NCBI GenBank assembly: GCA_964474205.1
Contig: CAYYRW010000005.1
Location: forward strand, 154,161 to 218,160
From: an uncultured Nitrospirales bacterium
Lineage (GTDB): Bacteria; Hydrogenedentota; Hydrogenedentia; Hydrogenedentales; CAILVY01
Reading direction: 5' to 3'
Length of the DNA: 64,000 nucleotides
Below the pieces are notes generated by a model. That model was given only the letters and a program-made list of their open reading frames with translations. It was not told the DNA's origin and searched no databases. Numbering within the stretch: position 1 is the stretch's first letter; each line of letters opens with the position of its first letter. Positions 3,059 through 21,289 of the stretch are shown piece by piece. Both the position numbers and the translations under genes were made by a program.

Positions 3059-3136
3059 GGCTGTTCTCCCTTCAGAAACAGTATACCCGGTCTCCCATCG
3101 TACGCCAAACATTTTTGTTTTTTACAAGATGGAATT

Positions 3137-3165
3137 TTGCAAGAGCGGAATGGATATGGTAATAT
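3137..3165 (+). promoter_or_regulatory. Putative sigma-70 promoter for the RAPP leader ORF
   Basis: TTGCAA (3137-3142), 17-nt spacer, TAATAT (3160-3165) with TGn extension. Confidence 0.55.
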
Positions 3166-3237
3166 CTCACGCATCGGGAAGCGGCGGATTCGCTGACCGC
3201 GCATCGAACGCCATGTTCGTCTAAAGCAGGAAAGAAT

Positions 3238-3573
3238 ATGCACGTACGGATGAAAACCAGAATAACTCGGTTAAAGGGTTCCGTGTTTCACCAGTACCCG
3301 ATCATTTTCTATCTTGTTTTAGCGGCACTTCTGGCCTTTTTCGCGGTAGCGGTGGTCCATGAACTCATCCCCGGTTTATGCACCGCCGATGACGGGAATG
3401 AAGATACATGCCCCTTCTGCCGTCTTGTGCACGCGCTTGTGCTTGTAGTCCCATTTTTTGCCGCACTCTGCGGCTGGATTATCCGGCGCGGCATTCCATG
3501 CCGGATAACGGATCTCTTACTGCCGTCTTTTCATTCCCCTGCAAATCTGCTGCGCGCCCCCCCTGCGTTTTAG
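3238..3573 (+). CDS. DUF2946-like leader peptide with CxxC and C-terminal RAPP arrest motif
   Basis: Hydrophobic segment, CPFC (3409-3420), second hydrophobic segment, RAPP (3553-3564) followed by AF and stop; GCAGGAAAG upstream of ATG. Confidence 0.7.
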   Translation: MHVRMKTRITRLKGSVFHQYPIIFYLVLAALLAFFAVAVVHELIPGLCTADDGNEDTCPFCRLVHALVLVVPFFAALCGWIIRRGIPCRITDLLLPSFHSPANLLRAPPAF

Positions 3574-3807
3574 CCTGCCCTTTCACCGATACGGGCGATG
3601 CATCTTCCCATACCACCGTCTAAACCGTGTTAATGGTCCTGTCACCACGCCCGTACGCATTCTCCCCTTCTTTGCGTTTTGCGCGGTTCAGAGTGGTTCT
3701 GTTCCCGCTGTTGCATAAAAAGGCCGGGCCGGAAAAAACACATGTCATCAACGCCAATCGATAGAAAGTGCATTTCCCGGCCCAAACCAATGGAGATACA
3801 TTGTATC

Positions 3808-4770
3808 ATGAAAACGACAAAAAATGGTTTCACCCTTATCGAGCTGCTGGTGGTCATCGCCATCATCGGCATCCTGGCGGCCATCTTGCTGCCGGCCCTA
3901 TCGCGCGCCCGCGAGGCCGCGCGGCGCTCAAGCTGCCAGAACAACCTGAAGGAAATGGGATTGGTGTTCAAGATGTATGCCAACGAGTCCTCGGGCCAGA
4001 AGTTCCCGATCATGAAGACTCGGGGGTGCAATGGAAATATCTACCCCATGGAGCAGTCGCCCGACGCCACGACGCTCTATCCGGAGTATCTGACCGACTT
4101 CAATGTCCTCATCTGCCCCAGTTCAATCGGCGGCGCCACCGCGGAAGACCGCTGGGACAAGATCGACTCCCTAAGCCCCTTTGTGCGCGAGATACCGGGC
4201 TTCAGCAACAACGGGATTCTCGAACCCTGCGAGGTGCTCGGCTATCCGTACACCTATGTCAGTTACGCGATCACCTCCGAAATGACCGACACGCAGGAGA
4301 AGTGCCAATCGCTGTGGGACAATATTTTCGACGCCTCGGAGGGGCTTGCGGCCCAAATCACGGCGGATCCTTCTGTGGTTCACGAAGACTGGGCCGTGGC
4401 GATTGCCGGTTCCGGCACGGGCGGCGGCGATCTCATATACCGAATGCGCGAGGGGATCGAACGATTCTTAATCACGGACATCAACAACCCTGCGGCAAGC
4501 AGCAAGGCACAATCCGAATTGCCCTTGATGTGGGACGTAATCTGCGATGAAGCTCACCATTTCAACCATGTGCCGGGCGGTTCGAATGTCCTCTTTATGG
4601 ATGGCCATGTCGAGTTCGTCCGGTGGCCCGGCGCCCAAGGCCCGAATGGGTCGTGGACAAACCCCGCAACCGGCGGGCCCCTGCCGGTGGGAACATCCTT
4701 CCCCATGAATGCGGGCGGCATGATCTTTCATGAAGCAACCCATCATTACGGCGCATTATTGCCCGAATAA
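3808..4770 (+). CDS. DUF1559 prepilin-type N-terminal cleavage/methylation protein with H-X9-DG motif
   Basis: [48 protein letters not shown]; [15 protein letters not shown]; RBS GGAG before ATG 3808. Confidence 0.9.
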
Positions 4771-4776
4771 ATAAGG

Positions 4777-4816
4777 CCGGGCGGGGCACTAACGTATATG
4801 GCACCGCCTCGCCCGG
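4777..4816 (+). terminator. Stem-loop after the DUF1559 gene (possible terminator)
   Basis: CCGGGCGGGGC / GCCTCGCCCGG 11-bp stem with one G-U pair; no clear U-tract. Confidence 0.35.
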
Positions 4817-4932
4817 ACCAAATTCCTTGCTCTGAAAATCCCCCTCGTATGCGGGAGCAAAGGGCACGCTGTGCTAGATTCAACGCGTTTTTCCCATTTT
4901 CCTGCCGCTGCCACAACACAAGGATTTTTTGG

Positions 4933-4961
4933 TTGACTTTTCAAAAGAAATACGATAGACT
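4933..4961 (+). promoter_or_regulatory. Sigma-70 promoter of perR-katA
   Basis: TTGACT (4933-4938), N17, TAGACT (4956-4961). Confidence 0.65.
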
Positions 4962-4966
4962 TGCAC

Positions 4967-4983
4967 ATAGGAATGATTATTAT
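4967..4983. promoter_or_regulatory. Fur/PerR-type operator (autoregulatory)
   Basis: ATAGGAAT-G-ATTATTAT imperfect 8-1-8 inverted repeat between the -10 box and the perR start codon. Confidence 0.55.
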
Positions 4984-4987
4984 TACC

Positions 4988-5440
4988 ATGAATGGCGCCA
5001 CCTTACAGCATCGCCTGGAGGAATTTCAGGAAGCCTGCAAACGGCTTGGATTGAAGGTCACGCACCAGCGGATGGAGATTTTCCGCGGGGTGATCATGAC
5101 GGAGAAGCATCCCGATGCGGTGTCGGTGCATCGTCAGGTAAAGAAGCGGATTCCGATGATATCGCTCGACACGGTATACCGGAATCTGAAGTTGCTGGCG
5201 GAGCATGGGTTGATCTCGATCGTGGGGCTGAGCCAGGAGAGTCTTCGTTTTGACGGCAACAGCGCGCCGCACCATCATTTTACCTGCGTGAAGTGCGGCC
5301 TGATTCGCGATTTCTCTTGCGCGCCCATGGAGTGTCCGGCCATGCCGGAGGAGGCGAAAGCATTTGGGCGCCCCTTATCCGTCCATCTTGAAGTTAAGGG
5401 CCTGTGCGCCGTATGTAAAAAATCAGCCCATCGGCGTTAA
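4988..5440 (+). CDS. perR: Fur-family peroxide-responsive repressor (PerR-like)
   Basis: KVTHQR, HPDA, ISLDTVYRNL, RFDGN..PHHHFTCVKCG, C-terminal CAVC; directly upstream of catalase. Confidence 0.8.
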   Translation: MNGATLQHRLEEFQEACKRLGLKVTHQRMEIFRGVIMTEKHPDAVSVHRQVKKRIPMISLDTVYRNLKLLAEHGLISIVGLSQESLRFDGNSAPHHHFTCVKCGLIRDFSCAPMECPAMPEEAKAFGRPLSVHLEVKGLCAVCKKSAHRR

Positions 5441-5479
5441 GGCTGTTATTTGCCCCGCGTAATAAGAAGGTTTACGAAC

Positions 5480-5494
5480 TAGTAATGACTACGT
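5480..5494. promoter_or_regulatory. Second putative PerR box upstream of katA
   Basis: TAGTAAT-G-ACTACGT, 12/15 match to the TAGTAAT-G-ATTACTA consensus inferred from the perR site. Confidence 0.35.
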
Positions 5495-5563
5495 TTTGTT
5501 TAACAGGATGCCGGAGCAGGTGTCACACTGCTCCAACACCGAACCCAGAAAAGGAGAAACATC

Positions 5564-7018
5564 ATGAGCGACGAGAAAAAACTCACGAACAATGCCGGCG
5601 CCCCCGTAGTAGACAATCAGAATGTTCTAACGGCGGGGCCGCGCGGTCCGATGCTGCTGCAGGATGTCTGGTTTCTTGAAAAACTGGCGCATTTCGACCG
5701 GGAGGTCATTCCCGAGCGTCGGATGCACGCCAAAGGTTCCGGCGCCTATGGCACCTTCACGGTCACCCATGACATCACGAAATACACCAAGGCAAAGATT
5801 TTTTCGAGCGTGGGCAAGAAAACGGACCTGTTCGTCCGGTTTTCCACGGTGGCGGGCGAGCGCGGCGCGGCGGATGCCGAGCGTGACATTCGCGGTTTCG
5901 CCATCAAGTTTTATACGGAAGAGGGCAATTGGGACCTGGTGGGCAACAACACCCCAGTGTTCTTTTTGCGCGATCCGCTGAAGTTTCCGGACCTGAACCA
6001 TGCGGTCAAGCGCGATCCGCGCACCAACCTGCGCAGCGCGCTGAACAACTGGGATTTCTGGACCTCGCTGCCTGAAGCGCTGCATCAGGTCACTGTGGTG
6101 ATGAGTGATCGGGGCATCCCGGCCTCCTATCGCCACATGCACGGTTTCGGCAGCCATACCTTCAGCCTGATCAATGCGAAAAACGAGCGGTATTGGGTGA
6201 AATTCCATTTGCGCACCCAGCAGGGCATCAAAAACCTCACGGACGCGGAGGCGGAGGCCATCATCGGGAAATGCCGTGAAAGCCATCAACGCGACCTCTA
6301 CGAGAGCATCGAGAAGGGCGATTTCCCCAAGTGGACCCTGTTTATCCAGGTGATGCCGGAGAAGGACGCCGCGAAGTGCCCCTACAATCCCTTCGACCTG
6401 ACAAAAGTCTGGTTTCATAAAGACTACCCGTTGATTGAGGTGGGCGTGATGGAACTGAACCGCAATCCGGAAAACTATTTTGCGGAGGTGGAGCAATCCG
6501 CCTTCAATCCCGCCAATATCGTGCCCGGCATCGGATTTTCGCCGGACAAGATGCTGCAGGGCCGCCTGTTTTCGTACGGCGACGCTCAGCGCTACCGGCT
6601 TGGCGTGAATCATCACCTGATCCCCGTCAATAAGGCGCGGTGTCCCTTCCACAGCTATCACCGCGACGGCGCGATGCGGGTGGACGGCAACCATGGCAGC
6701 ACGCTGGGCTATGAGCCGAATAGTTTTGGCGAATGGAAGCAACAGCCGGACTTTGCGGAACCGCCGCTCGCCCTTGATGGCGCGGCCGATCATTGGAATC
6801 ACCGCGAGGACGATGATTATTACACCCAGCCGGGGATGCTGTTCCGCCTGATGAACAAAGCGCAACAGGAGGCCCTGTTCGGGAACACCGCACGGGCCAT
6901 GGGCGACGCTCCCAAGGAGATCAAAATCCGCCACATCAAGAATTGCCTGAAAGCTGATCCCGCCTACGGCAAAGGCGTGGCCGATGCACTGGGCATCCCG
7001 CTGAGCGAAGCATCGTAA
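5564..7018 (+). CDS. katA: Monofunctional heme catalase (small subunit)
   Basis: [18 protein letters not shown] distal His motif, [24 protein letters not shown] proximal Tyr; RBS AAGGAG. Confidence 0.97.
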
Positions 7019-13464: not shown

Positions 13465-14145
13465 ATGGAACAGCAGGCTGAACGGATGCCGCTAATTGGC
13501 GAAAAAGCGCCCTCGTTTAAGGCAGAGACCACACAGGGAGAAATCAATTTCCCGGATTGTTACAAAGGGAAGTGGGTGGTCTTTTTCTCTCATCCGGCGG
13601 ATTTCACGCCGGTATGCACCACGGAATTCATGACCTTCGCCTCGATGGCACAAGAATTCAAAAAACTGAATTGTGAACTCCTGGGTCTGTCCATTGACAG
13701 CACCTACAGTCACATCGCGTGGCTGCGCACCATCAAAGAGAAAATTACGTACAAGGGCATGAAGGGGATCGAGGTCATGTTTCCCGTCATCAGCGACCTG
13801 ACAATGGAAGTTTCCCGGAAATTCGGGATGCTGCAGCCCGGCGCAAGCAACACGCAAGCTGTCCGCGCGGTTTTCATCATAGACCCGAAAGGGATCGTCC
13901 GGGCGTTGTTCTACTACCCGCTTAGCAATGGCCGCAATATGGAAGAGGTCAAGCGATTATTGATCGCCATGCAACATTCCGATAAATATAACGTCGCCAC
14001 GCCTGCCAACTGGCAACTTGGCGATGATGTAATCGTCCCGCCGCCTGGATCCTGCGGAACGGCCAAAGAGCGCATGAACAAGCCCGCCCCCGGCACCAAA
14101 GTGCTGGATTGGTTCATGGTTTTGAAGAAGTGTCCGCACAAATAA
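13465..14145 (+). CDS. Peroxiredoxin, Prx6 subfamily
   Basis: FFSHPADFTPVCTTE, GLSIDS..SHIAW, GRNMEEVKR, TPANW. Confidence 0.92.
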   Translation: MEQQAERMPLIGEKAPSFKAETTQGEINFPDCYKGKWVVFFSHPADFTPVCTTEFMTFASMAQEFKKLNCELLGLSIDSTYSHIAWLRTIKEKITYKGMKGIEVMFPVISDLTMEVSRKFGMLQPGASNTQAVRAVFIIDPKGIVRALFYYPLSNGRNMEEVKRLLIAMQHSDKYNVATPANWQLGDDVIVPPPGSCGTAKERMNKPAPGTKVLDWFMVLKKCPHK

Positions 14146-14727: not shown

Positions 14728-15752
14728 GGGAGGATCGCTCCTTCATCGGCGCCCCGATTGGCGTTATTCACACCCAACATAGGGTCCCGGAAGAAACGCC
14801 TATCCAGCCGGCGTTCGCCATGAATTGTCCCGGCTGGCTTGAGGTTTTGCCTGAATATGCCGAGGGTCTGAAGAATCTTGAAGGATTTTCCCACATTGTG
14901 TTGCTTTATTATTTCCATCAGACCGGCCCTCCCCGGTTGACTGTGCGGCCATTTGTTGATGATACGCCCAGAGGTGTTTTTTCCACACGGCACCCACAAC
15001 GTCCCAATCCGATCGGTCTTTCTGTGGTGCGCCTGACGCGCATGGAAGGAACCCGTCTTTATATGGAGGGAATGGATATTTTGGATGGAACACCGTTGCT
15101 AGACATCAAGCCGTATATCCCAAAGTTTGACTGCCCGGAAAATGTGCGAGACGGTTGGTTTGGCGGGGTGGATGAAAAGACGGTGCAGCGGCGGGGCCGC
15201 AGGATGCGAAAAAAGCCCCAAGGGTGGCTGTCATTTTCTTTGATGTCCCTGGCGTTTTATTTCCGGGACCTGCTTCATCCGCCCGTAAAGATACTCCAGG
15301 AAGCAGGCTTGGCATCAGGTGCAACGGTGCTGGATTTTGGCTGCGGCCCCGGTGCGTTTTCTGTGGCGGCCGCCGGGATAGTGGGGCCAGGCGGCAAAGT
15401 TTTCGCCGTGGATGTCAATCCATTGGCGTTGGCCGCTGTCCATCGGACGGTGGAGAAAAAACAATTATGTAATGTCACCCTTTTATCACCAGCAGACCTC
15501 CTCGATATTCCGGAGGGCACTGTGGATATGGTCATCATGTATGATGTTCTCCACGATGTGCCCGATCCGCCGGCGGTGCTTGCATCGTTTTATCGATTGT
15601 TAAAGCCGGAAGGTCTTCTTACCGTCAGCGATCATCACATGATCAAAACAGCGATTTTTTCTGCTATTCAATCAAACGGCTTGTTTGAATTTTCCAACAA
15701 ATGGCATGGCCAAACAGGTTATTACTGCTTCAGGAGAGCCGCGCATGGCTGA
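14724..15752 (+). CDS. TrmO/TsaA-like domain fused to a class I SAM methyltransferase
   Basis: PIGVIHT, GLKNLEGFSHI, RGVFSTRHPQRPNPIGLS, DGTPLLDIKPY; then VLDFGCGPG, VFAVD, DVLHD. Confidence 0.8.
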   Translation: MREDRSFIGAPIGVIHTQHRVPEETPIQPAFAMNCPGWLEVLPEYAEGLKNLEGFSHIVLLYYFHQTGPPRLTVRPFVDDTPRGVFSTRHPQRPNPIGLSVVRLTRMEGTRLYMEGMDILDGTPLLDIKPYIPKFDCPENVRDGWFGGVDEKTVQRRGRRMRKKPQGWLSFSLMSLAFYFRDLLHPPVKILQEAGLASGATVLDFGCGPGAFSVAAAGIVGPGGKVFAVDVNPLALAAVHRTVEKKQLCNVTLLSPADLLDIPEGTVDMVIMYDVLHDVPDPPAVLASFYRLLKPEGLLTVSDHHMIKTAIFSAIQSNGLFEFSNKWHGQTGYYCFRRAAHG

Positions 15753-16620
15753 ACGAAGAATTATCGCAATAGCATCGGGCAAAGGCGGCACTGGGAAGAC
15801 CACGGTGGCCGTCAACCTGGCCTCCGTCATGGAGGGGATGGTCACCTACGCGGATTGCGACGTGGAGGAACCCAACGGGCATATCTTCTTGAAGCCCGCC
15901 CTGAACACCGGCAAGGCCGTTGGAATCCCTGTTCCCGTCGTGGATTCGGACAAGTGCACGGGCTGCGGAAGTTGCGCACAGGCATGCCGGTTCAACGCCA
16001 TCGCCTGTGTGCGAGAGAAGGTGCTGGTGTTCGCGGAGTTATGTCATGGGTGCGGGGGATGCGTCTTCGCCTGCCCTTCAAAGGCGATATCAGAAAAAGA
16101 GCATGGCATCGGAGTCGTGGAATCCGGCTATTCCAACCATCTTTCCTTTGTTCAAGGGCGGTTGCGTGTGGGCGCGGCAATGTCCCCGCCGCTGATCCGC
16201 GCGGTCATGGAATCCCTTCCCTCCGGCGGCAATGTGATTTTGGACGCGCCGCCGGGCACGTCCTGTCCCGTGATAGCGGCCATCAAGGGCAGTGATTATG
16301 TTGTATTGGTGACCGAGCCCACTCCCTTTGGCCTGCACGATCTGAAACTGGCCGTGGAAACCGTGCGGCAACTGGGCCTTCCCTTCGGGGTGGTGGTGAA
16401 CCGGTGTGATATTGGCGATGACCGGGTGGGGGACTATTGCCGGGAAGAGGCTATTCCCATACTCGTGGAAATTCCCGATGACCGGCGCATCGCCGAGGCT
16501 TATTCGCGCGGGGAGGTGGCGGTGGACGCCGTCCCCGGACTGCGCGGGGTATTCATGCAACTGGACCAGCGGATTCGCGAGTGCACAACAACGCTTAATG
16601 CGTTAAAAGGCGGCGCATGA
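15745..16620 (+). CDS. MinD-superfamily P-loop ATPase with inserted ferredoxin (COG1149-like)
   Basis: IASGKGGTGKTT, DCDVEEPN, two CxxCxxCxxxC motifs, DAPPGTSCP, VTEPTPFGLHD. Confidence 0.9.
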   Translation: MAERRIIAIASGKGGTGKTTVAVNLASVMEGMVTYADCDVEEPNGHIFLKPALNTGKAVGIPVPVVDSDKCTGCGSCAQACRFNAIACVREKVLVFAELCHGCGGCVFACPSKAISEKEHGIGVVESGYSNHLSFVQGRLRVGAAMSPPLIRAVMESLPSGGNVILDAPPGTSCPVIAAIKGSDYVVLVTEPTPFGLHDLKLAVETVRQLGLPFGVVVNRCDIGDDRVGDYCREEAIPILVEIPDDRRIAEAYSRGEVAVDAVPGLRGVFMQLDQRIRECTTTLNALKGGA

Positions 16621-17597
16621 TGATGCAGACGGTTCCACCCGGACGACGCTATACGCATATCTTCGGCCCCGTCCTTTCACGCCGTTTGGGAAGATCCCTC
16701 GGCGTTGACATTATGCCGTTCAAAACCTGCACCTATGATTGCCTCTATTGTGAACAGGGCCGGACCACCAACCACACGGCCCGCCGGGCCGTATATGTAT
16801 CCTGTGCGGAGGTGCTTGATGAATTGAAGCATTTTTTGTCGTCCATGCCCGAACCCGATTACATCACCTTGTCCGGCGCGGGGGAACCCACGCTTCATGC
16901 GGAACTCGGCGATCTTGTTCAGGGAATCAAGGCGATGACCGGCGTTCCCCTGGCCGTAATCACAAACGGCTCTTTGTTGTGGGACGTGAAGGTCCGGGAT
17001 GGACTGAAAAGGGCCGATGTGGTATTGCCGTCGCTGGACGCCGGCAATGCCCGGCTGTTCACCCGGATCAACCGCCCCGTTCCGGACATATCCTTCGATC
17101 AGATGCTTGGCGGCTTGATGGCATTTCGGGAGTCATTTCCCAATGAGATGTGGCTCGAGGTGATGCTTATGGACGGTATCACTTCCGGGGATTCGGAAGT
17201 CCGGGAAATCGCCGAACAGGTCCGGCGTTTTCGGCCCAATCGAATTCAGTTAAACACGGTGGTGCGTCCACCCGCGGAGCCCTCTGCTCGGCCAATTCCG
17301 AGAGCACGGCTCGAATCGCTCGCGGCCTTCTTTGAACCGCGTGCGGAGCCCATTGCGGACTATGCCGGCGCCATCCAGGAAATGAATGATTTCCCCGATG
17401 CGGATCGCCTGTTGAAACTCCTGGAACGGCGGCCCTGTTCGCTCATGCAGATTGCCGCCACACTGGGCCTGCGGCCGGTCGAAACGTCAAAGATTATTGA
17501 ACACCTTGCGGGGCAGAACAAGATTGTTCAGGAATGCTTTGGTAATTGCCTGTTTTTTTCAGCGGCGCATAAGGCCAATGAGGAAGAAAGTAGATGA
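16617..17597 (+). CDS. Radical SAM protein (COG0731-like)
   Basis: FGPVLSRRLGRSLGVD, CTYDCLYC, ITLSGAGEPTL, VITNGSLL, PSLDA. Confidence 0.88.
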   Translation: MMMQTVPPGRRYTHIFGPVLSRRLGRSLGVDIMPFKTCTYDCLYCEQGRTTNHTARRAVYVSCAEVLDELKHFLSSMPEPDYITLSGAGEPTLHAELGDLVQGIKAMTGVPLAVITNGSLLWDVKVRDGLKRADVVLPSLDAGNARLFTRINRPVPDISFDQMLGGLMAFRESFPNEMWLEVMLMDGITSGDSEVREIAEQVRRFRPNRIQLNTVVRPPAEPSARPIPRARLESLAAFFEPRAEPIADYAGAIQEMNDFPDADRLLKLLERRPCSLMQIAATLGLRPVETSKIIEHLAGQNKIVQECFGNCLFFSAAHKANEEESR

Positions 17598-18610
17598 AAG
17601 AACTCGTTGTGATTAGTGGCAAAGGTGGAACGGGCAAGACCAGTGTCGTTGCGGCTTTTGCGTCGCTGGCGGAACACAAGGTGCTGGCGGATTGCGATGT
17701 GGATGCGGCGGATCTTCATTTGATCCTTCAACCGGAAAACCGATCCATCCATGAATTTCGCAGTGGAAACGAGGCCATCATTCGCCCGGAGGTCTGCATC
17801 GGCTGCGGCGCGTGTCTGGTGCATTGCCGCTTTGGGGCGGTGAAACAGACTTCCGGCGTGGATGTCGAGTGGATGCTGCGCGCCTCCGCGCATGACTGCG
17901 GCGATTGTGATTTTTGCGTGCGTTCCTGCCCCAACCGCTCCGTTGACATGCTCCATGCAATACAGGAAAGCCTGGGTGCGGAAGCCAAGGCCGCCTTTGT
18001 TATTGATCCGCTTGCCTGTGAAGGGTGTGGCGTATGCGTGGATGCCTGCCCCGCAAAAGCGATAGATTTCCCGGAACGGCGTGCCGGGGAATGGTACATT
18101 TCGGACACGCGGCACGGTCCCATGGTGCATGCACGGCTGGGCATCGCCGCGGAAAATTCGGGGAAACTGGTGAGCCTTGTGCGACAGCAGGCTCGTCAGC
18201 TTGCCGTGGAACAGGGCAATGATTTGATATTGATTGACGGCCCCCCCGGAATAGGATGCCCGGTCATCGCCAGCATCACGGGCGCCTCGCTGGTGCTTAT
18301 TATCACGGAACCCACCCTCAGCGGCCAGCACGACTTTCAGCGCGTGGCCGAACTGGCGCGGCACTTCAACATTCCGGCGATGGTTTGTGTTAACAAGTGG
18401 AATCTGAATCCCGAAATGACGGAAGCCATTGAGGCGTCCGCGGAAGCCCTCGGCGTGAAATCCCTGGGAAGAATACGGTATGATCGATCCATCACCGAGG
18501 CACAAGTGGCGGGAAAAAACGTGTTGGAATATTCCGAAAAGGGCGCCAGTGAGGATATCCGTGGCCTTTGGGCGCGTCTGGATTCGTTTTTATCCGCCCG
18601 TGAAAATTGA
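17594..18610 (+). CDS. Second COG1149-like MinD/ferredoxin ATPase with three 4Fe-4S motifs
   Basis: SGKGGTGKTS, DCDVDAADL, CIGCGACLVHC, CGDCDFCVRSCP, CEGCGVCVDACP, GKLV, DGPPGIGCP. Confidence 0.9.
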   Translation: MKELVVISGKGGTGKTSVVAAFASLAEHKVLADCDVDAADLHLILQPENRSIHEFRSGNEAIIRPEVCIGCGACLVHCRFGAVKQTSGVDVEWMLRASAHDCGDCDFCVRSCPNRSVDMLHAIQESLGAEAKAAFVIDPLACEGCGVCVDACPAKAIDFPERRAGEWYISDTRHGPMVHARLGIAAENSGKLVSLVRQQARQLAVEQGNDLILIDGPPGIGCPVIASITGASLVLIITEPTLSGQHDFQRVAELARHFNIPAMVCVNKWNLNPEMTEAIEASAEALGVKSLGRIRYDRSITEAQVAGKNVLEYSEKGASEDIRGLWARLDSFLSAREN

Positions 18611-18646
18611 AATGGAAACAACAACGAACACGAGGAGAAACATCGT

Positions 18647-18733
18647 ATGCCAAGCCAAAACGCGCGGATACTGAACCGCGGGTTGGGCGGACGTGTGTTT
18701 TCCGTGCCGCCGCCTCTGGCGGGAAAGGTGTGA
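18647..18733 (+). CDS. Possible 28-aa small ORF
   Basis: MPSQNARILNRGLGGRVFSVPPPLAGKV* with GAGGAG about 9 nt upstream; no recognised family. Confidence 0.25.
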   Translation: MPSQNARILNRGLGGRVFSVPPPLAGKV

Positions 18734-18744
18734 AGGAGCGGACC

Positions 18745-19914
18745 ATGCCTAACGATCCCTTGACCCCCTATGGAAACCGTCCGATGGTGACGCCCATCGT
18801 CAACGCCGTGAATTACAAGTATCTTTCGTTTGATGTGTTGCGGCAAATCACCGATGGCGAGATTGATGGCTATACCTACCACCGCGACGACAACCCGACG
18901 GTGCGCGAAGTCGAGCGCCAAATGGCGGCGCTGGAAGGCGCCGAAGACTGTGTTGTCTGCACTTCGGGCATGGCCGCCTGCACCATGGTGTACCTGACCT
19001 ACTTGCAGGCGGGGGATCATGTCATCATTTTTCACGACACCTACGGCGCCAATTATAAGGTCTCGTTAATCCTTGAACGGTTGGGCATTGCGTTCACCTG
19101 GATGGATGCCGACGATGCCGGTCAAATCGAGCAGCAGCTTCGCGCCAACACGCGCATGATTTTTCTGGAGACGCCCACCAACCCCTTGTGTAAAATTATG
19201 GATGTACCCGCCCTCCGCCGCGCCGCGGATACGGTGGGCGCCATGCTGGTGGTGGACAACACCTTCGCCACGCCGTATCACCAAAATCCCTTAACCTTGG
19301 GGGCCGATTTGGTTGTACACAGCGCCACCAAGGCCCTCGGGGGGCACAATGATCTCATGGCGGGCGCCATCGCTGGTTCAAAAGAACACTACAACCGGTT
19401 GTGGTTCACCCGGCAGGCCATTGGCACCACCTTGGATGCCTATTCCGCCTTTCTGCTGGAACGGGGTCTGAAAACCTTTGACCTGCGCGCCGCCGCCATG
19501 GCACGCGGCGCACAGGCCGTCGCGGAATTCCTCGCCAGGCATCCGGCGGTCTCGCGGGTTTCCTATCCGGGGCTTCCCGATCATCCCGGGCATGCCGTGG
19601 CGGCGCGCCAGATGCACCGCGGTTTTGGCGGCATGCTTTCCTTCGACGTGGGCCAGGATGAAGAACATGCCAAGCGGTTTATCGCGGCGCTGCGCACCAT
19701 TTGCCACGCAGTCAGCCTGGGTGCAACGGAATCTCTAATCTGCATTCCGCATCTGACAACCATGCTGTATTTACCGCCGGAACGGCGGGCCCTCTTTGGA
19801 GTGAAGAAAAACACCGTCCGGTTGTCGGTGGGCATTGAACCGCCGGAAACCCTGTTGGCCGATCTGAAGCAGGCGCTGGCGTGTGTCGAGCAGGACGCCG
19901 CGCCCCATGGATAG
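18745..19914 (+). CDS. PLP-dependent trans-sulfuration enzyme (cystathionine gamma-synthase / Met or Cys lyase family)
   Basis: YHRDDNPT, SGMAA, LETPTNP, VDNTFATP, VHSATKALGGH (PLP Lys), VSLGATESL, RLSVGIE; RBS AAGGAG. Confidence 0.9.
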   Translation: MPNDPLTPYGNRPMVTPIVNAVNYKYLSFDVLRQITDGEIDGYTYHRDDNPTVREVERQMAALEGAEDCVVCTSGMAACTMVYLTYLQAGDHVIIFHDTYGANYKVSLILERLGIAFTWMDADDAGQIEQQLRANTRMIFLETPTNPLCKIMDVPALRRAADTVGAMLVVDNTFATPYHQNPLTLGADLVVHSATKALGGHNDLMAGAIAGSKEHYNRLWFTRQAIGTTLDAYSAFLLERGLKTFDLRAAAMARGAQAVAEFLARHPAVSRVSYPGLPDHPGHAVAARQMHRGFGGMLSFDVGQDEEHAKRFIAALRTICHAVSLGATESLICIPHLTTMLYLPPERRALFGVKKNTVRLSVGIEPPETLLADLKQALACVEQDAAPHG

Positions 19915-19923
19915 TTTTTTCAC

Positions 19924-19939
19924 TTGGCATGCATCATGT
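19924..19939 (+). promoter_or_regulatory. Second putative sigma-54 promoter
   Basis: TTGGCATGCATCATGT, 14/16 identical to the 9379-9394 element; about 50 bp upstream of the mrp-nifX start. Confidence 0.5.
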
Positions 19940-19990
19940 CCATGATGGACAGGTTGTTAACAAAAAGTTCGTTAGGAGATAGTACGCTAT

Positions 19991-21289
19991 ATGGAAGACA
20001 CCGATTCCGCCGTTTTCTCACAAGCGGCCCAAAAGCACGAGGCGGAGCCCATTTCGTGCGGCTCCTGTGACAAGGAAACGTGTTCGAGCAAGGTCCGGCG
20101 CCACAATGAAAGCGACAAAGACTTTTTGGAACGCCAGGAACTTGCTGAACGGTTATGCCAAATCAAGCATAAAATTCTTGTCTTGTCCGGAAAGGGCGGT
20201 GTGGGCAAAAGCACGGTGGCGGTCAATCTCGCCGTATCCTTAATGCTGGCCGGAAAGCGGGTAGGGCTGTTGGACGTGGATATTCATGGCCCCAGCATTC
20301 CGAAGATGATGCATCTGGAAGGTTCTCCGGTGTTGACCGAAGGGGACCGCCTGCTTCCCATCGAGGTGGGCGATATGAAGGTGTTGTCACTCGGATTCTT
20401 TCTGAAAAGCGCCGATGACGCGGTGATCTGGCGCGGACCCATGAAAATGGGGGTTATCAAGCAGTTTTTGAAGGATGCCTGCTGGGGTAAACTGGATTAT
20501 CTGGTTGTTGATTCCCCCCCCGGAACGGGTGACGAGCCGTTGTCCGTTTGTCAGCTTATTGAGAATGCCGATGGCGCAATCATTGTAACGACGCCGCAGG
20601 ATGTCTCCGTCGCCGATGTGCGCCGCTCGATCAGTTTTTGCCACGCACTTCACCTTCCCGTGCTGGGCGTGGTGGAAAACATGAGCGGTTTTGTTTGCCC
20701 GCACTGTGGTGAAATCACGAATATTTTCAAGACGGGAGGCGGGGCGCGGATGGCCGCCGAAATGGCCGTCCCCTTCTTGGGCTGCATCCCCCTTGACCCC
20801 AAGGTGGGCGAGTCCTGTGATGCCGGCGCCCCCTATGTGCACCATTATGCCGGCAGCGAAACCGCGAAAGCGTTTAACCAAATTATTCAACCCATTCTTG
20901 CACTGGATGGCGTTAAAACACCGCCATCCCTCGAAAAGGAGAGTAGAACGATGCGTATTGCGATTCCCGTGGCCAATGGAAGGCTTGCGATGCACTTTGG
21001 GCATTGCGAACAGTTCGCGCTTGTGGATGTGGAGCCAGCGGAGAAACAGATTGTTAAAACGGAACTGGTGGACGCGCCGGAACATCAGCCGGGGCTGCTG
21101 CCGCGCTGGCTCGGCGAAAGAGGGGCCAACGTGATCATCGCAGGCGGCATGGGCTCGCGCGCCCAAACCCTGTTTGCCGAGCAGGGGATAGCGGTGATCG
21201 TGGGCGCGCCCGCGGAAACCATCGAGTATTTGATAAAGTCTTATCTGGAAGGTACTTTGGAACCGGGCGAAAATGTCTGTGATCATTGA
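19991..21289 (+). CDS. Mrp/NBP35 (ApbC) Fe-S carrier ATPase fused to a C-terminal NifB/NifX domain
   Basis: N-terminal CGSCDKETC, SGKGGVGKST, DVDIHGPS, VIWRGP, DSPPGTGD, ENMSGFVCPHCG; then MRIAIPV...MHFGHC...HQPG...IAGGMG. Confidence 0.92.
   Translation: MEDTDSAVFSQAAQKHEAEPISCGSCDKETCSSKVRRHNESDKDFLERQELAERLCQIKHKILVLSGKGGVGKSTVAVNLAVSLMLAGKRVGLLDVDIHGPSIPKMMHLEGSPVLTEGDRLLPIEVGDMKVLSLGFFLKSADDAVIWRGPMKMGVIKQFLKDACWGKLDYLVVDSPPGTGDEPLSVCQLIENADGAIIVTTPQDVSVADVRRSISFCHALHLPVLGVVENMSGFVCPHCGEITNIFKTGGGARMAAEMAVPFLGCIPLDPKVGESCDAGAPYVHHYAGSETAKAFNQIIQPILALDGVKTPPSLEKESRTMRIAIPVANGRLAMHFGHCEQFALVDVEPAEKQIVKTELVDAPEHQPGLLPRWLGERGANVIIAGGMGSRAQTLFAEQGIAVIVGAPAETIEYLIKSYLEGTLEPGENVCDH

Follow-up and report, generated by a model that had tools for sequence, protein, structure and literature searches.

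A 64-kb stretch of DNA from an uncultured member of Candidatus Hydrogenedentota (contig CAYYRW010000005.1; the whole stretch is referred to here as the window) carries a short open reading frame (ORF) in front of a gene for a prepilin-type DUF1559 protein, both on the plus strand. The ORF, referred to here as the leader (window 3238-3573), encodes 111 amino acids (aa) with the sequence MHVRMKTRITRLKGSVFHQYPIIFYLVLAALLAFFAVAVVHELIPGLCTADDGNEDTCPFCRLVHALVLVVPFFAALCGWIIRRGIPCRITDLLLPSFHSPANLLRAPPAF. It has the elements that an earlier reading of the same DNA (the original prediction) had attributed to it: a hydrophobic segment, which proved to be one of two; the motif CPFC (residues 58-61, nucleotides [nt] 3409-3420); and RAPP two codons ahead of the stop, followed only by Ala-Phe. 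CPFC and RAPP are separated by 44 residues. After a spacer of exactly 234 nt (3574-3807), the product of the downstream gene matches N_methyl (PF07963, E 8e-9), DUF1559/SBP_bac_10 (PF07596, E 6e-11) and TIGR04294 (E 9e-7), all above cut-offs, as expected of a prepilin-type DUF1559/H-X9-DG protein. The His-rich C-terminus ascribed to this protein is also present (DEAHHFNH and HEATHHY in the C-terminal part). We consider it fairly probable that the leader is an arrest peptide of the DUF2946 class, probably co-transcribed with the DUF1559 gene and controlling it in cis, with a read-out resembling that of CruR.

A RAPP-type codon pattern near a stop codon is not significant alone (1 match versus 0.30 expected, with at least one match in 25 of 100 shuffles). 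The leader ORF is placed beyond chance by its conservation in five close homologues and 87 cluster representatives, and comparison of these sequences indicates that the ORF is real and that its motifs are under selection. The close homologues, found by a word-indexed search at 43-53% identity, all retain HELIPxLC, CPFC and RAPPA. Invariant residues in their alignment are F24, F34, A36, H41, E42, L43, I44, P45, L47 and C48, together with C58, P59, F60, C61, L63 and the R-A-P-P-A string; the N-terminal hydrophobic segment is conserved as well.

A profile search against 1.84 billion cluster representatives returned the 87 sequences at E <= 0.001, mostly 87-138 aa in length. R[AGSV]PP is found in 85 of them, mostly 1-8 residues from the C-terminus, and RAPP is the prevailing form in the family (RAPP 60, RGPP 21, RSPP 4, RVPP 1). 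The tail past RxPP is most often 2 residues long (30/86), then 4 (16), 5 (11) or 3 (8). CxxC is present in 77 of 88 family sequences, and the automatic count of its distance to RxPP gives 43 residues in 18 and 44 in 48, that is, 43-44 in 66 of 77; six of the 11 outliers were counted from an extra CxxC nearer RxPP. Among the loci described below, the gap is 43-44 in L006, L007 and L012-L014 and 42 in L008. When 79 relatives are aligned (mean column identity 21%), the only invariant columns are the R, P and P of RxPP. H41 is conserved in at least 90% of these 79, and the C48 position is His in many relatives. The original prediction had staked itself on conservation in relatives, and the ORF, CxxC and RxPP are indeed kept in the five homologues and the 87 representatives, with leaders consistently preceding DUF1559. 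Motif scans for such leaders in collections of genome and metagenome contigs recovered 1 and 3 loci only, and there are no other prepilin genes or credible RxPP-ended leaders in the window.

A sub-branch of the family lacks the cysteines (P0062, P0065, P0073-P0076, P0082, P0084 and P0086): HGLAPxLW ... GPFR replaces HELIPGLC ... CPFC, and RxPP is kept. In P0074 the spacing is equal, 44 residues as counted by eye. These Cys-less leaders may sense something besides a thiophilic metal.

Eight further loci have readable downstream sequence, and every one of them shows the pairing of leader and DUF1559 gene; three (counting the near-identical L014 and L015 once) were selected via the DUF1559 protein alone. 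In the loci reached from the leader (L001, L002, L003 and L006), a prepilin/DUF1559 gene lies 104-245 nt downstream; the L005 contig ends within the conserved Shine-Dalgarno (SD) region, before any DUF1559 gene would show. For the reverse test, DUF1559 orthologues at 64-74% identity served as the start and their contigs were then checked upstream. In L012, L013 and L014/L015 this revealed an uncalled upstream ORF (L012:5558-5905, L013:5421-5816, L014:5526-5864 and L015:5475-5864). In each, the N-terminus is hydrophobic, a His cluster is present, and CxxC is separated by 43-44 residues from R[SG]PP, after which 2-5 residues remain. These leaders are strongly diverged and retain the architecture alone; two are from AT-rich genomes. 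Gene callers missed the leader in all four of the loci reached from DUF1559, leaving apparently empty gaps of 0.6-1.1 kb, and the leader branch is therefore systematically under-annotated. Across loci, spacer lengths are 95-245 nt and the leader is first in the putative operon. The next gene is convergent in L012 and L014, so the regulated unit there consists of leader and DUF1559 only.

Table 1. Features of the leader-DUF1559 locus, in window coordinates
Feature	Position	Strand	Basis
Promoter-like site, TTGCAA-17-TAATAT	3137-3165	+	8/12 consensus positions; weak
SD-like AGGAAAG, AGGA 6 nt before the leader ATG	3228-3234	+	Direct sequence reading
Leader ORF, 111 aa, predicted divergent DUF2946/CruR/CutF-like sensory arrest peptide	3238-3573	+	ORF list, homologues, hhalign
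N-terminal hydrophobic segment after a basic n-region, residues about 22-40 (22-45 in the hydropathy profile), predicted export signal or Nin-Cout anchor	3301-3357	+	Kyte-Doolittle, alignment
Candidate sensor loop, H41-E-L-I-P-G-L-C48 ... C58-P-F-C61	3358-3420	+	Conservation in homologues
Second hydrophobic segment, residues about 62-83 (60-83 in the hydropathy profile)	3421-3486	+	Kyte-Doolittle profile
RAPP arrest motif, CGC GCC CCC CCT, residues 106-109 of 111	3553-3564	+	Invariant R106, P108, P109
C-rich, G-poor first 100 nt of spacer (C 39, G 16), rut-like tract	3574-3673	+	Base composition
Conserved hairpin, ~66 nt, in 3' part of spacer, ending ~5 nt before the SD	3722-3787	+	Conservation, RNAalifold
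SD of the DUF1559 gene, GGAGA	3792-3796	+	Direct reading
Prepilin-type DUF1559/H-X9-DG protein, 320 aa, presumed regulated gene	3808-4770	+	Pfam, NCBIfam
H308-E-A-T-H312 (HExxH) in DUF1559 C-terminal helix	4729-4743	+	Conservation in 66 orthologues
Strong GC-rich hairpin directly after the DUF1559 stop, without U-tract	4775-4819	+	-27.4 kcal/mol, z -3.08

The closest characterised system is CruR (Bp2923) of Bordetella pertussis, a DUF2946 upstream ORF (uORF) that precedes the TonB-dependent transporter gene bfrG (Roy et al. 2022, mBio, PMC9426467). DUF2946 proteins are marked by CXXC, RAPP, an export signal and a gap of 45 +/- 1-2 residues (Roy et al. 2022, PMC9426467). The window leader has all four hallmarks (export signal by Kyte-Doolittle, gap 44), and two canonical proteobacterial DUF2946 examples have gaps of 45-46. 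The profile check proposed in the original prediction was negative for the leader itself: PF11162 gave no match even at E <= 10, and direct Pfam and NCBIfam scans returned no DUF2946 match. The gathering score of PF11162 is 23.7 bits, of which the closest homologue, P0002, reaches 16.3 (E 0.017). PF11162 is matched by 53 of the 79 leader relatives (best E 6.7e-7), and two of these, P0045 (27.6 bits) and P0070 (28.2 bits), are above the cut-off; the matches extend from the CxxC region through the last position of the model. An hhalign comparison of the close family with the group containing P0045 and P0070 gives a probability of 98.75% (E 1.4e-16) over 93 columns. Because relatives match PF11162, two of them pass its cut-off and hhalign links the groups, we file the leader under DUF2946; these alignments support its placement as a divergent, sub-threshold branch of that family. 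The predicted kinship with CxxC + RAPP leaders of the DUF2946/CruR/CutF type thus holds as remote homology, accompanied by the 44-residue gap.

The same pairing is already on record. In the source data for Fig. 4A/B of Fujiwara et al. (EMBO J 2025, PMC12992588), 'DUF1559 domain-containing protein' is in the top 30 classes downstream of RAPP and RGPP uORFs, and the claim that this target class was undescribed for such leaders therefore falls. RAPP uORFs precede DUF1559 genes in 112 cases versus 68 for AAPP (6.5-fold, p 2.7e-34), and RGPP uORFs in 116 versus 24 for AGPP (8.7-fold, p 2.1e-30); DeepTMHMM assigns 'SP' to 104 of the 112 RAPP uORFs and 107 of the 116 RGPP uORFs (PMC12992588). In the part of the catalogue compared, CxxC (or CxxF) lies exactly 43 residues before RxPP in five of five examples (PMC12992588). 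The examples in that part include Rhodopirellula (RE6C locus tags), and one is a protein named 'DUF2946 domain-containing protein' by the Prokaryotic Genome Annotation Pipeline (PGAP) directly upstream of a DUF1559 gene (PMC12992588). DUF1559 appears nowhere in the main text of Fujiwara et al. 2025 (PMC12992588). As the source data list DUF1559 and the main text omits it, the leader-DUF1559 pairing is catalogued, in counts and sequences, without interpretation. Roy et al. report just 'a few' homologues in Planctomycetes (PMC9426467), and the supplements of Roy 2022 and Ozturk 2023 make no mention of DUF1559, N_methyl or Planctomycetes.

CruR and the window leader share an N-terminal export signal, CxxC, RAPP two to three residues before the stop, and the position of first gene in the unit. 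The CxxC-RAPP gap is fixed in both (45 in CruR, 44 here), and both are followed by a long spacer that is C-rich after the stop (162 bp in CruR, 234 nt here). The two are remotely homologous via the DUF2946 profile, yet the window leader falls below the Pfam threshold; it has in addition a conserved HELIPGLC motif and a strongly hydrophobic segment after CxxC that CruR lacks. The host of CruR belongs to the Proteobacteria and that of the window leader to Candidatus Hydrogenedentota. The CruR target is a TonB-dependent transporter whose control is Rho-dependent and copper-responsive; the presumed target in the window is a prepilin-type DUF1559 protein.

CruR is also the best guide to mechanism. 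Its RAPP stall blocks Rho-dependent termination in the 162-bp spacer, and copper relieves the stall (PMC9426467). RAPP and RGPP are robust arrest motifs refractory to elongation factor P (EF-P), and in vitro the ribosome on CruR halts with the two Pro codons occupying the P and A sites (PMC12992588). On this model, the nascent window leader would be directed to export by its N-terminal hydrophobic segment, and the ribosome would stall at RAPP with Pro108 (CCC, 3559-3561) in the P site and Pro109 (CCT, 3562-3564) in the A site, a register inferred from the published CruR toeprint (PMC12992588). At the stall, the His/Cys loop (H41, C48 and C58-P-F-C61), 44 residues from RAPP, would be just outside the exit tunnel, where binding of a transition metal may alter the duration of the stall; copper is expected by homology, and zinc or another metal is possible. 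A ribosome stalled two codons before the stop would shield the C-rich start of the spacer from Rho and allow read-through into DUF1559, and release of the stall would permit transcription termination in the spacer.

The spacer was examined with this scheme in mind. Its C minus G value over the first 100 nt is at the 98.7th percentile among all 100-nt stretches of the window, and in 12 of 12 loci the first 60 nt past the leader stop contain no fewer C than G (combined p 1e-6). No promoter-like sites or intrinsic terminators were found within the spacer by scan. The original prediction called the spacer structured, and its length of 234 nt was correct; as a global statement about structure we reject it, since the whole-spacer fold is no better than that of shuffled sequence (z = -0.04). 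What is conserved, at the nucleotide level, is a single hairpin in the 3' part (Table 1), for which RNAalifold gives 16 pairs from five sequences. Of its cells, 83% are paired versus 73% in shuffles, with the observed value reached by 0 of 500; in the same five sequences six pairs are changed on both sides, and the hairpin performs far better than slid controls. The single-sequence fold is -20.1 kcal/mol (z -1.9). The hairpin leaves the DUF1559 SD free, and in none of the predicted folds is this SD stably sequestered; AATGGAG at the SD is conserved in L001, L003 and L005. It may serve for pausing or termination, act as a stabilising element or bind a protein. Comparison of 3100-3900 with Rfam (E <= 10) gave sub-threshold chance matches only and none for this hairpin; the best was SorX on the opposite strand (22.5 bits versus a gathering score of 46.6).

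The sigma-70 promoter proposed upstream of the leader is less convincing than the ORF that it would serve: the site agrees with the consensus at just 8 of 12 positions and goes unreported in the promoter scan, for which 9/12 is the minimum. It sits in the divergent intergenic region between a GMC oxidoreductase gene (minus strand) and the leader.

A CruR-like attenuator is favoured because of the C>G tract, the lack of a promoter or terminator in the spacer by scan, and the lack of support for SD masking. Several results weigh against this interpretation. The C>G tract is modest, as 5.5% of 60-nt stretches in the window are equally skewed, and kinship among the 12 loci means that the combined p overstates the support. 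The sigma-70 consensus behind the promoter scan is possibly unsuited to Hydrogenedentota; it overlooks even the promoter proposed for the leader, and a promoter within the spacer, in its conserved 3' part, is therefore possible. The failure of the leader to match PF11162 counts on the same side, as does the fact that ZnuA and DtxR neighbours and a Cys3His-like ligand set fit zinc, manganese and iron equally with copper.

The best-studied alternative to attenuation is translational control of the type described for CutF of Rhodobacter capsulatus, the DUF2946-like leader of the cutFOG operon (Ozturk et al. 2023, PMC9973294; 2025, bioRxiv 10.1101/2025.02.05.636593). There, copper induces a stall that enables the ribosome to melt the stem-loop hiding the SD of the next gene, and CutF works only in cis on that gene (PMC9973294; bioRxiv 10.1101/2025.02.05.636593). 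In the window, such a stall would unmask the DUF1559 ribosome-binding site from messenger RNA (mRNA) structure and leave transcription unaffected. The Rhodobacter CutF-CutO pair has a CTTC anti-SD in a stem-loop just after cutF (PMC9973294; bioRxiv 10.1101/2025.02.05.636593), and CCUUC/CUCC-like pyrimidine-rich tracts follow the leader stop in most of our loci, where those of L014, L002 and L007, the loci with short spacers (104-136 nt), are predicted to pair with the downstream SD. Such pairing is predicted in these short-spacer loci only. In the window, the first 20 nt past the stop pair with the SD at a probability of 0.03, and 98% of shuffles form a stronger duplex; ten loci taken together give a combined p of 0.82. 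These figures do not support masking by the post-stop tract in the window. The Pro-Pro codons of RAPP were rejected as an anti-SD of general use: in the window their probability of pairing with the initiation region is 0.00, and by synonymous recoding codon choice is not selected for pairing except in L013. The 234-nt spacer also exceeds the range of under 100 nt that is compatible with stem-loop melting according to Ozturk et al. (PMC9973294), and the conserved hairpin keeps the SD free. Together with the differences in motif (CxxxC and an EF-P-sensitive PPP in CutF, CxxC and RAPP here) and in layout (a short spacer with an SD-masking stem-loop in CutF, 234 nt with no SD masking predicted here), these results make a CutF-type switch unlikely in the window.

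Whatever the read-out, the stimulus need not be a metal. ApdA, ApdP and SecM have a C-terminal RAPP/RAGP-type core, an export signal and control in cis (PMC7897499; PMC10951233), as is predicted here, and the geometry of the window leader, with an export signal and a second hydrophobic segment ~25 residues before RAPP, would suit sensing by pulling force. The peptide would then monitor export or membrane insertion capacity, like SecM, MifM, VemP and ApdA/ApdP, or, through its cysteines, periplasmic thiol-redox state: DsbA and thioredoxin genes are also preceded by RAPP/RGPP uORFs (PMC12992588), and a PerR-like Fur regulator, catalase and peroxiredoxin are encoded downstream in the window. The Cys-less sub-branch keeps RxPP, and the cysteines are therefore not always required. 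We nevertheless judge a non-metal stimulus to be improbable. ApdA, ApdP and SecM lie upstream of sec/yidC genes and have no conserved Cys/His sensor (Sakiyama et al. 2021, PMC7897499; Morici et al. 2024, PMC10951233), whereas the gene downstream in the window and in eight other loci encodes an N_methyl + DUF1559 protein, outside the localisation machinery, and is not a Sec, YidC or Dsb gene. The oxidative-stress neighbours have promoter-like sites of their own and are not conserved in L012-L014. DUF2946, to which the leader is homologous, has two studied members, and both respond to copper; other members of the leader's family neighbour ZnuA/ABC-3 and DtxR genes. The ORF might also encode an ordinary small membrane protein that partners the DUF1559 protein, for example as an anchor or chaperone, with no regulatory role for RAPP. 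A small, stable metalloprotein of the membrane could likewise have two hydrophobic segments and conserved Cys/His residues, but R, P and P are the sole invariant residues in the 79 relatives, at a set distance from CxxC and a few residues from the stop. RAPP and RGPP are among the most strongly avoided bacterial tetrapeptides, with an exception for the C-terminal ends of small exported proteins encoded ahead of regulated genes (PMC12992588), and CruR and CutF are barely detectable as proteins (PMC9426467, PMC9973294). We regard such an ordinary membrane protein as very improbable.

Within the reading of the leader as a metal-responsive arrest peptide, the metal may be copper or another. H41, C48, C58 and C61 form a ligand set that would suit Zn(II) or Cu(I). 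Elsewhere in the leader family, the neighbouring genes suggest a link with metals. The unit at L007:3968-7814 is of another, non-DUF1559 kind: a closely related leader (CPFC and RAPP, 44 residues apart) is followed by genes for an outer-membrane-like protein of 479 aa that has a signal peptide and belongs to no Pfam family, for a ZnuA-type binding protein and for an ABC-3 permease, in that order. In L005:106-959 and L008:1699-2584, a gene for a DtxR-family metal-dependent repressor overlaps the start of the leader ORF, which suggests translational coupling and a second, transcriptional layer of metal control. DUF2946/CutF-like genes have been found upstream of metal-homeostasis genes, not all of them copper-specific (PMC9973294). 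It is a possible, though doubtful, variant that these leaders sense a metal other than copper (e.g. zinc at a Cys3His-type site) and that the DUF1559 protein is a metal-regulated pseudopilin of the surface or periplasm that binds metal itself, by way of its conserved His/Asp/HExxH cluster.

Orthologues of the DUF1559 protein at 52-84% identity include several named as Candidatus Hydrogenedentota; these names, with those of cluster mates at 90% identity or more, underlie the assignment of the organism to that phylum. Among 66 orthologues, C43, C74, C103, C141, H254, D265 and H308 are invariant, and H251, H267, E309, H312, D243 and D247 are conserved in at least 90%; a second orthologue group, found behind the L001 and L002 leaders, is without the HExxH tail. 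A role in metal binding or acquisition is plausible for the window protein as a hypothesis. Its AlphaFold2 model has a mean predicted local distance difference test (pLDDT) score of 94.4. A Foldseek comparison of the model with the PDB gave no fold match (best E 3.6), and a sequence search of the PDB gave matches confined to the pilin alpha-1 helix; the globular part, as modelled, appears to have a fold without an experimentally solved relative.

The hairpin at 4775-4819 is likely the end of the two-gene unit, and promoter-like sites at 4933-4983 precede the next gene. The locus is adjoined by an oxidative-stress cluster comprising a PerR-like Fur-family regulator (4988-7018 region), catalase (5564-7018) and peroxiredoxin (13465-14145), an arrangement that the other loci do not share. 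Further downstream, at 15685-21289, is a run of iron-sulphur (Fe-S)-related genes: two Fer4 + CbiA/ParA-type NTPases, a radical SAM protein, a Cys/Met pyridoxal phosphate (PLP) enzyme, and a fusion of a NUBPL-type NTPase with Nitro_FeMo-Co. The NUBPL-type gene of this run resembles a NUBPL/Mrp-type P-loop NTPase gene located just upstream of the L007 leader.

The catalogue of Fujiwara et al. 2025 (PMC12992588) holds the same uORF-DUF1559 pairing, with uORF products mostly predicted to be secreted, as counts and sequences only. A sizeable branch of DUF2946 escapes both the Pfam model and gene callers, and with this branch the CruR/CutF mechanism would reach the uncultured phylum Candidatus Hydrogenedentota. 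DUF1559 is among the largest families of unknown function; its members are pilin-like, and single genomes of Planctomycetota and allied phyla encode many of them. A sensory leader before particular DUF1559 orthologue groups leads to a testable hypothesis, namely that their expression is tuned by a transition metal. Should the doubtful variant above hold, with a non-copper sensor and a metal-binding pseudopilin, it would offer a first hold on the function of part of this very large family in Planctomycetota, Hydrogenedentota and relatives, and in those groups the DUF1559 protein could fill the role that TonB-dependent copper receptors have behind CruR in Proteobacteria.

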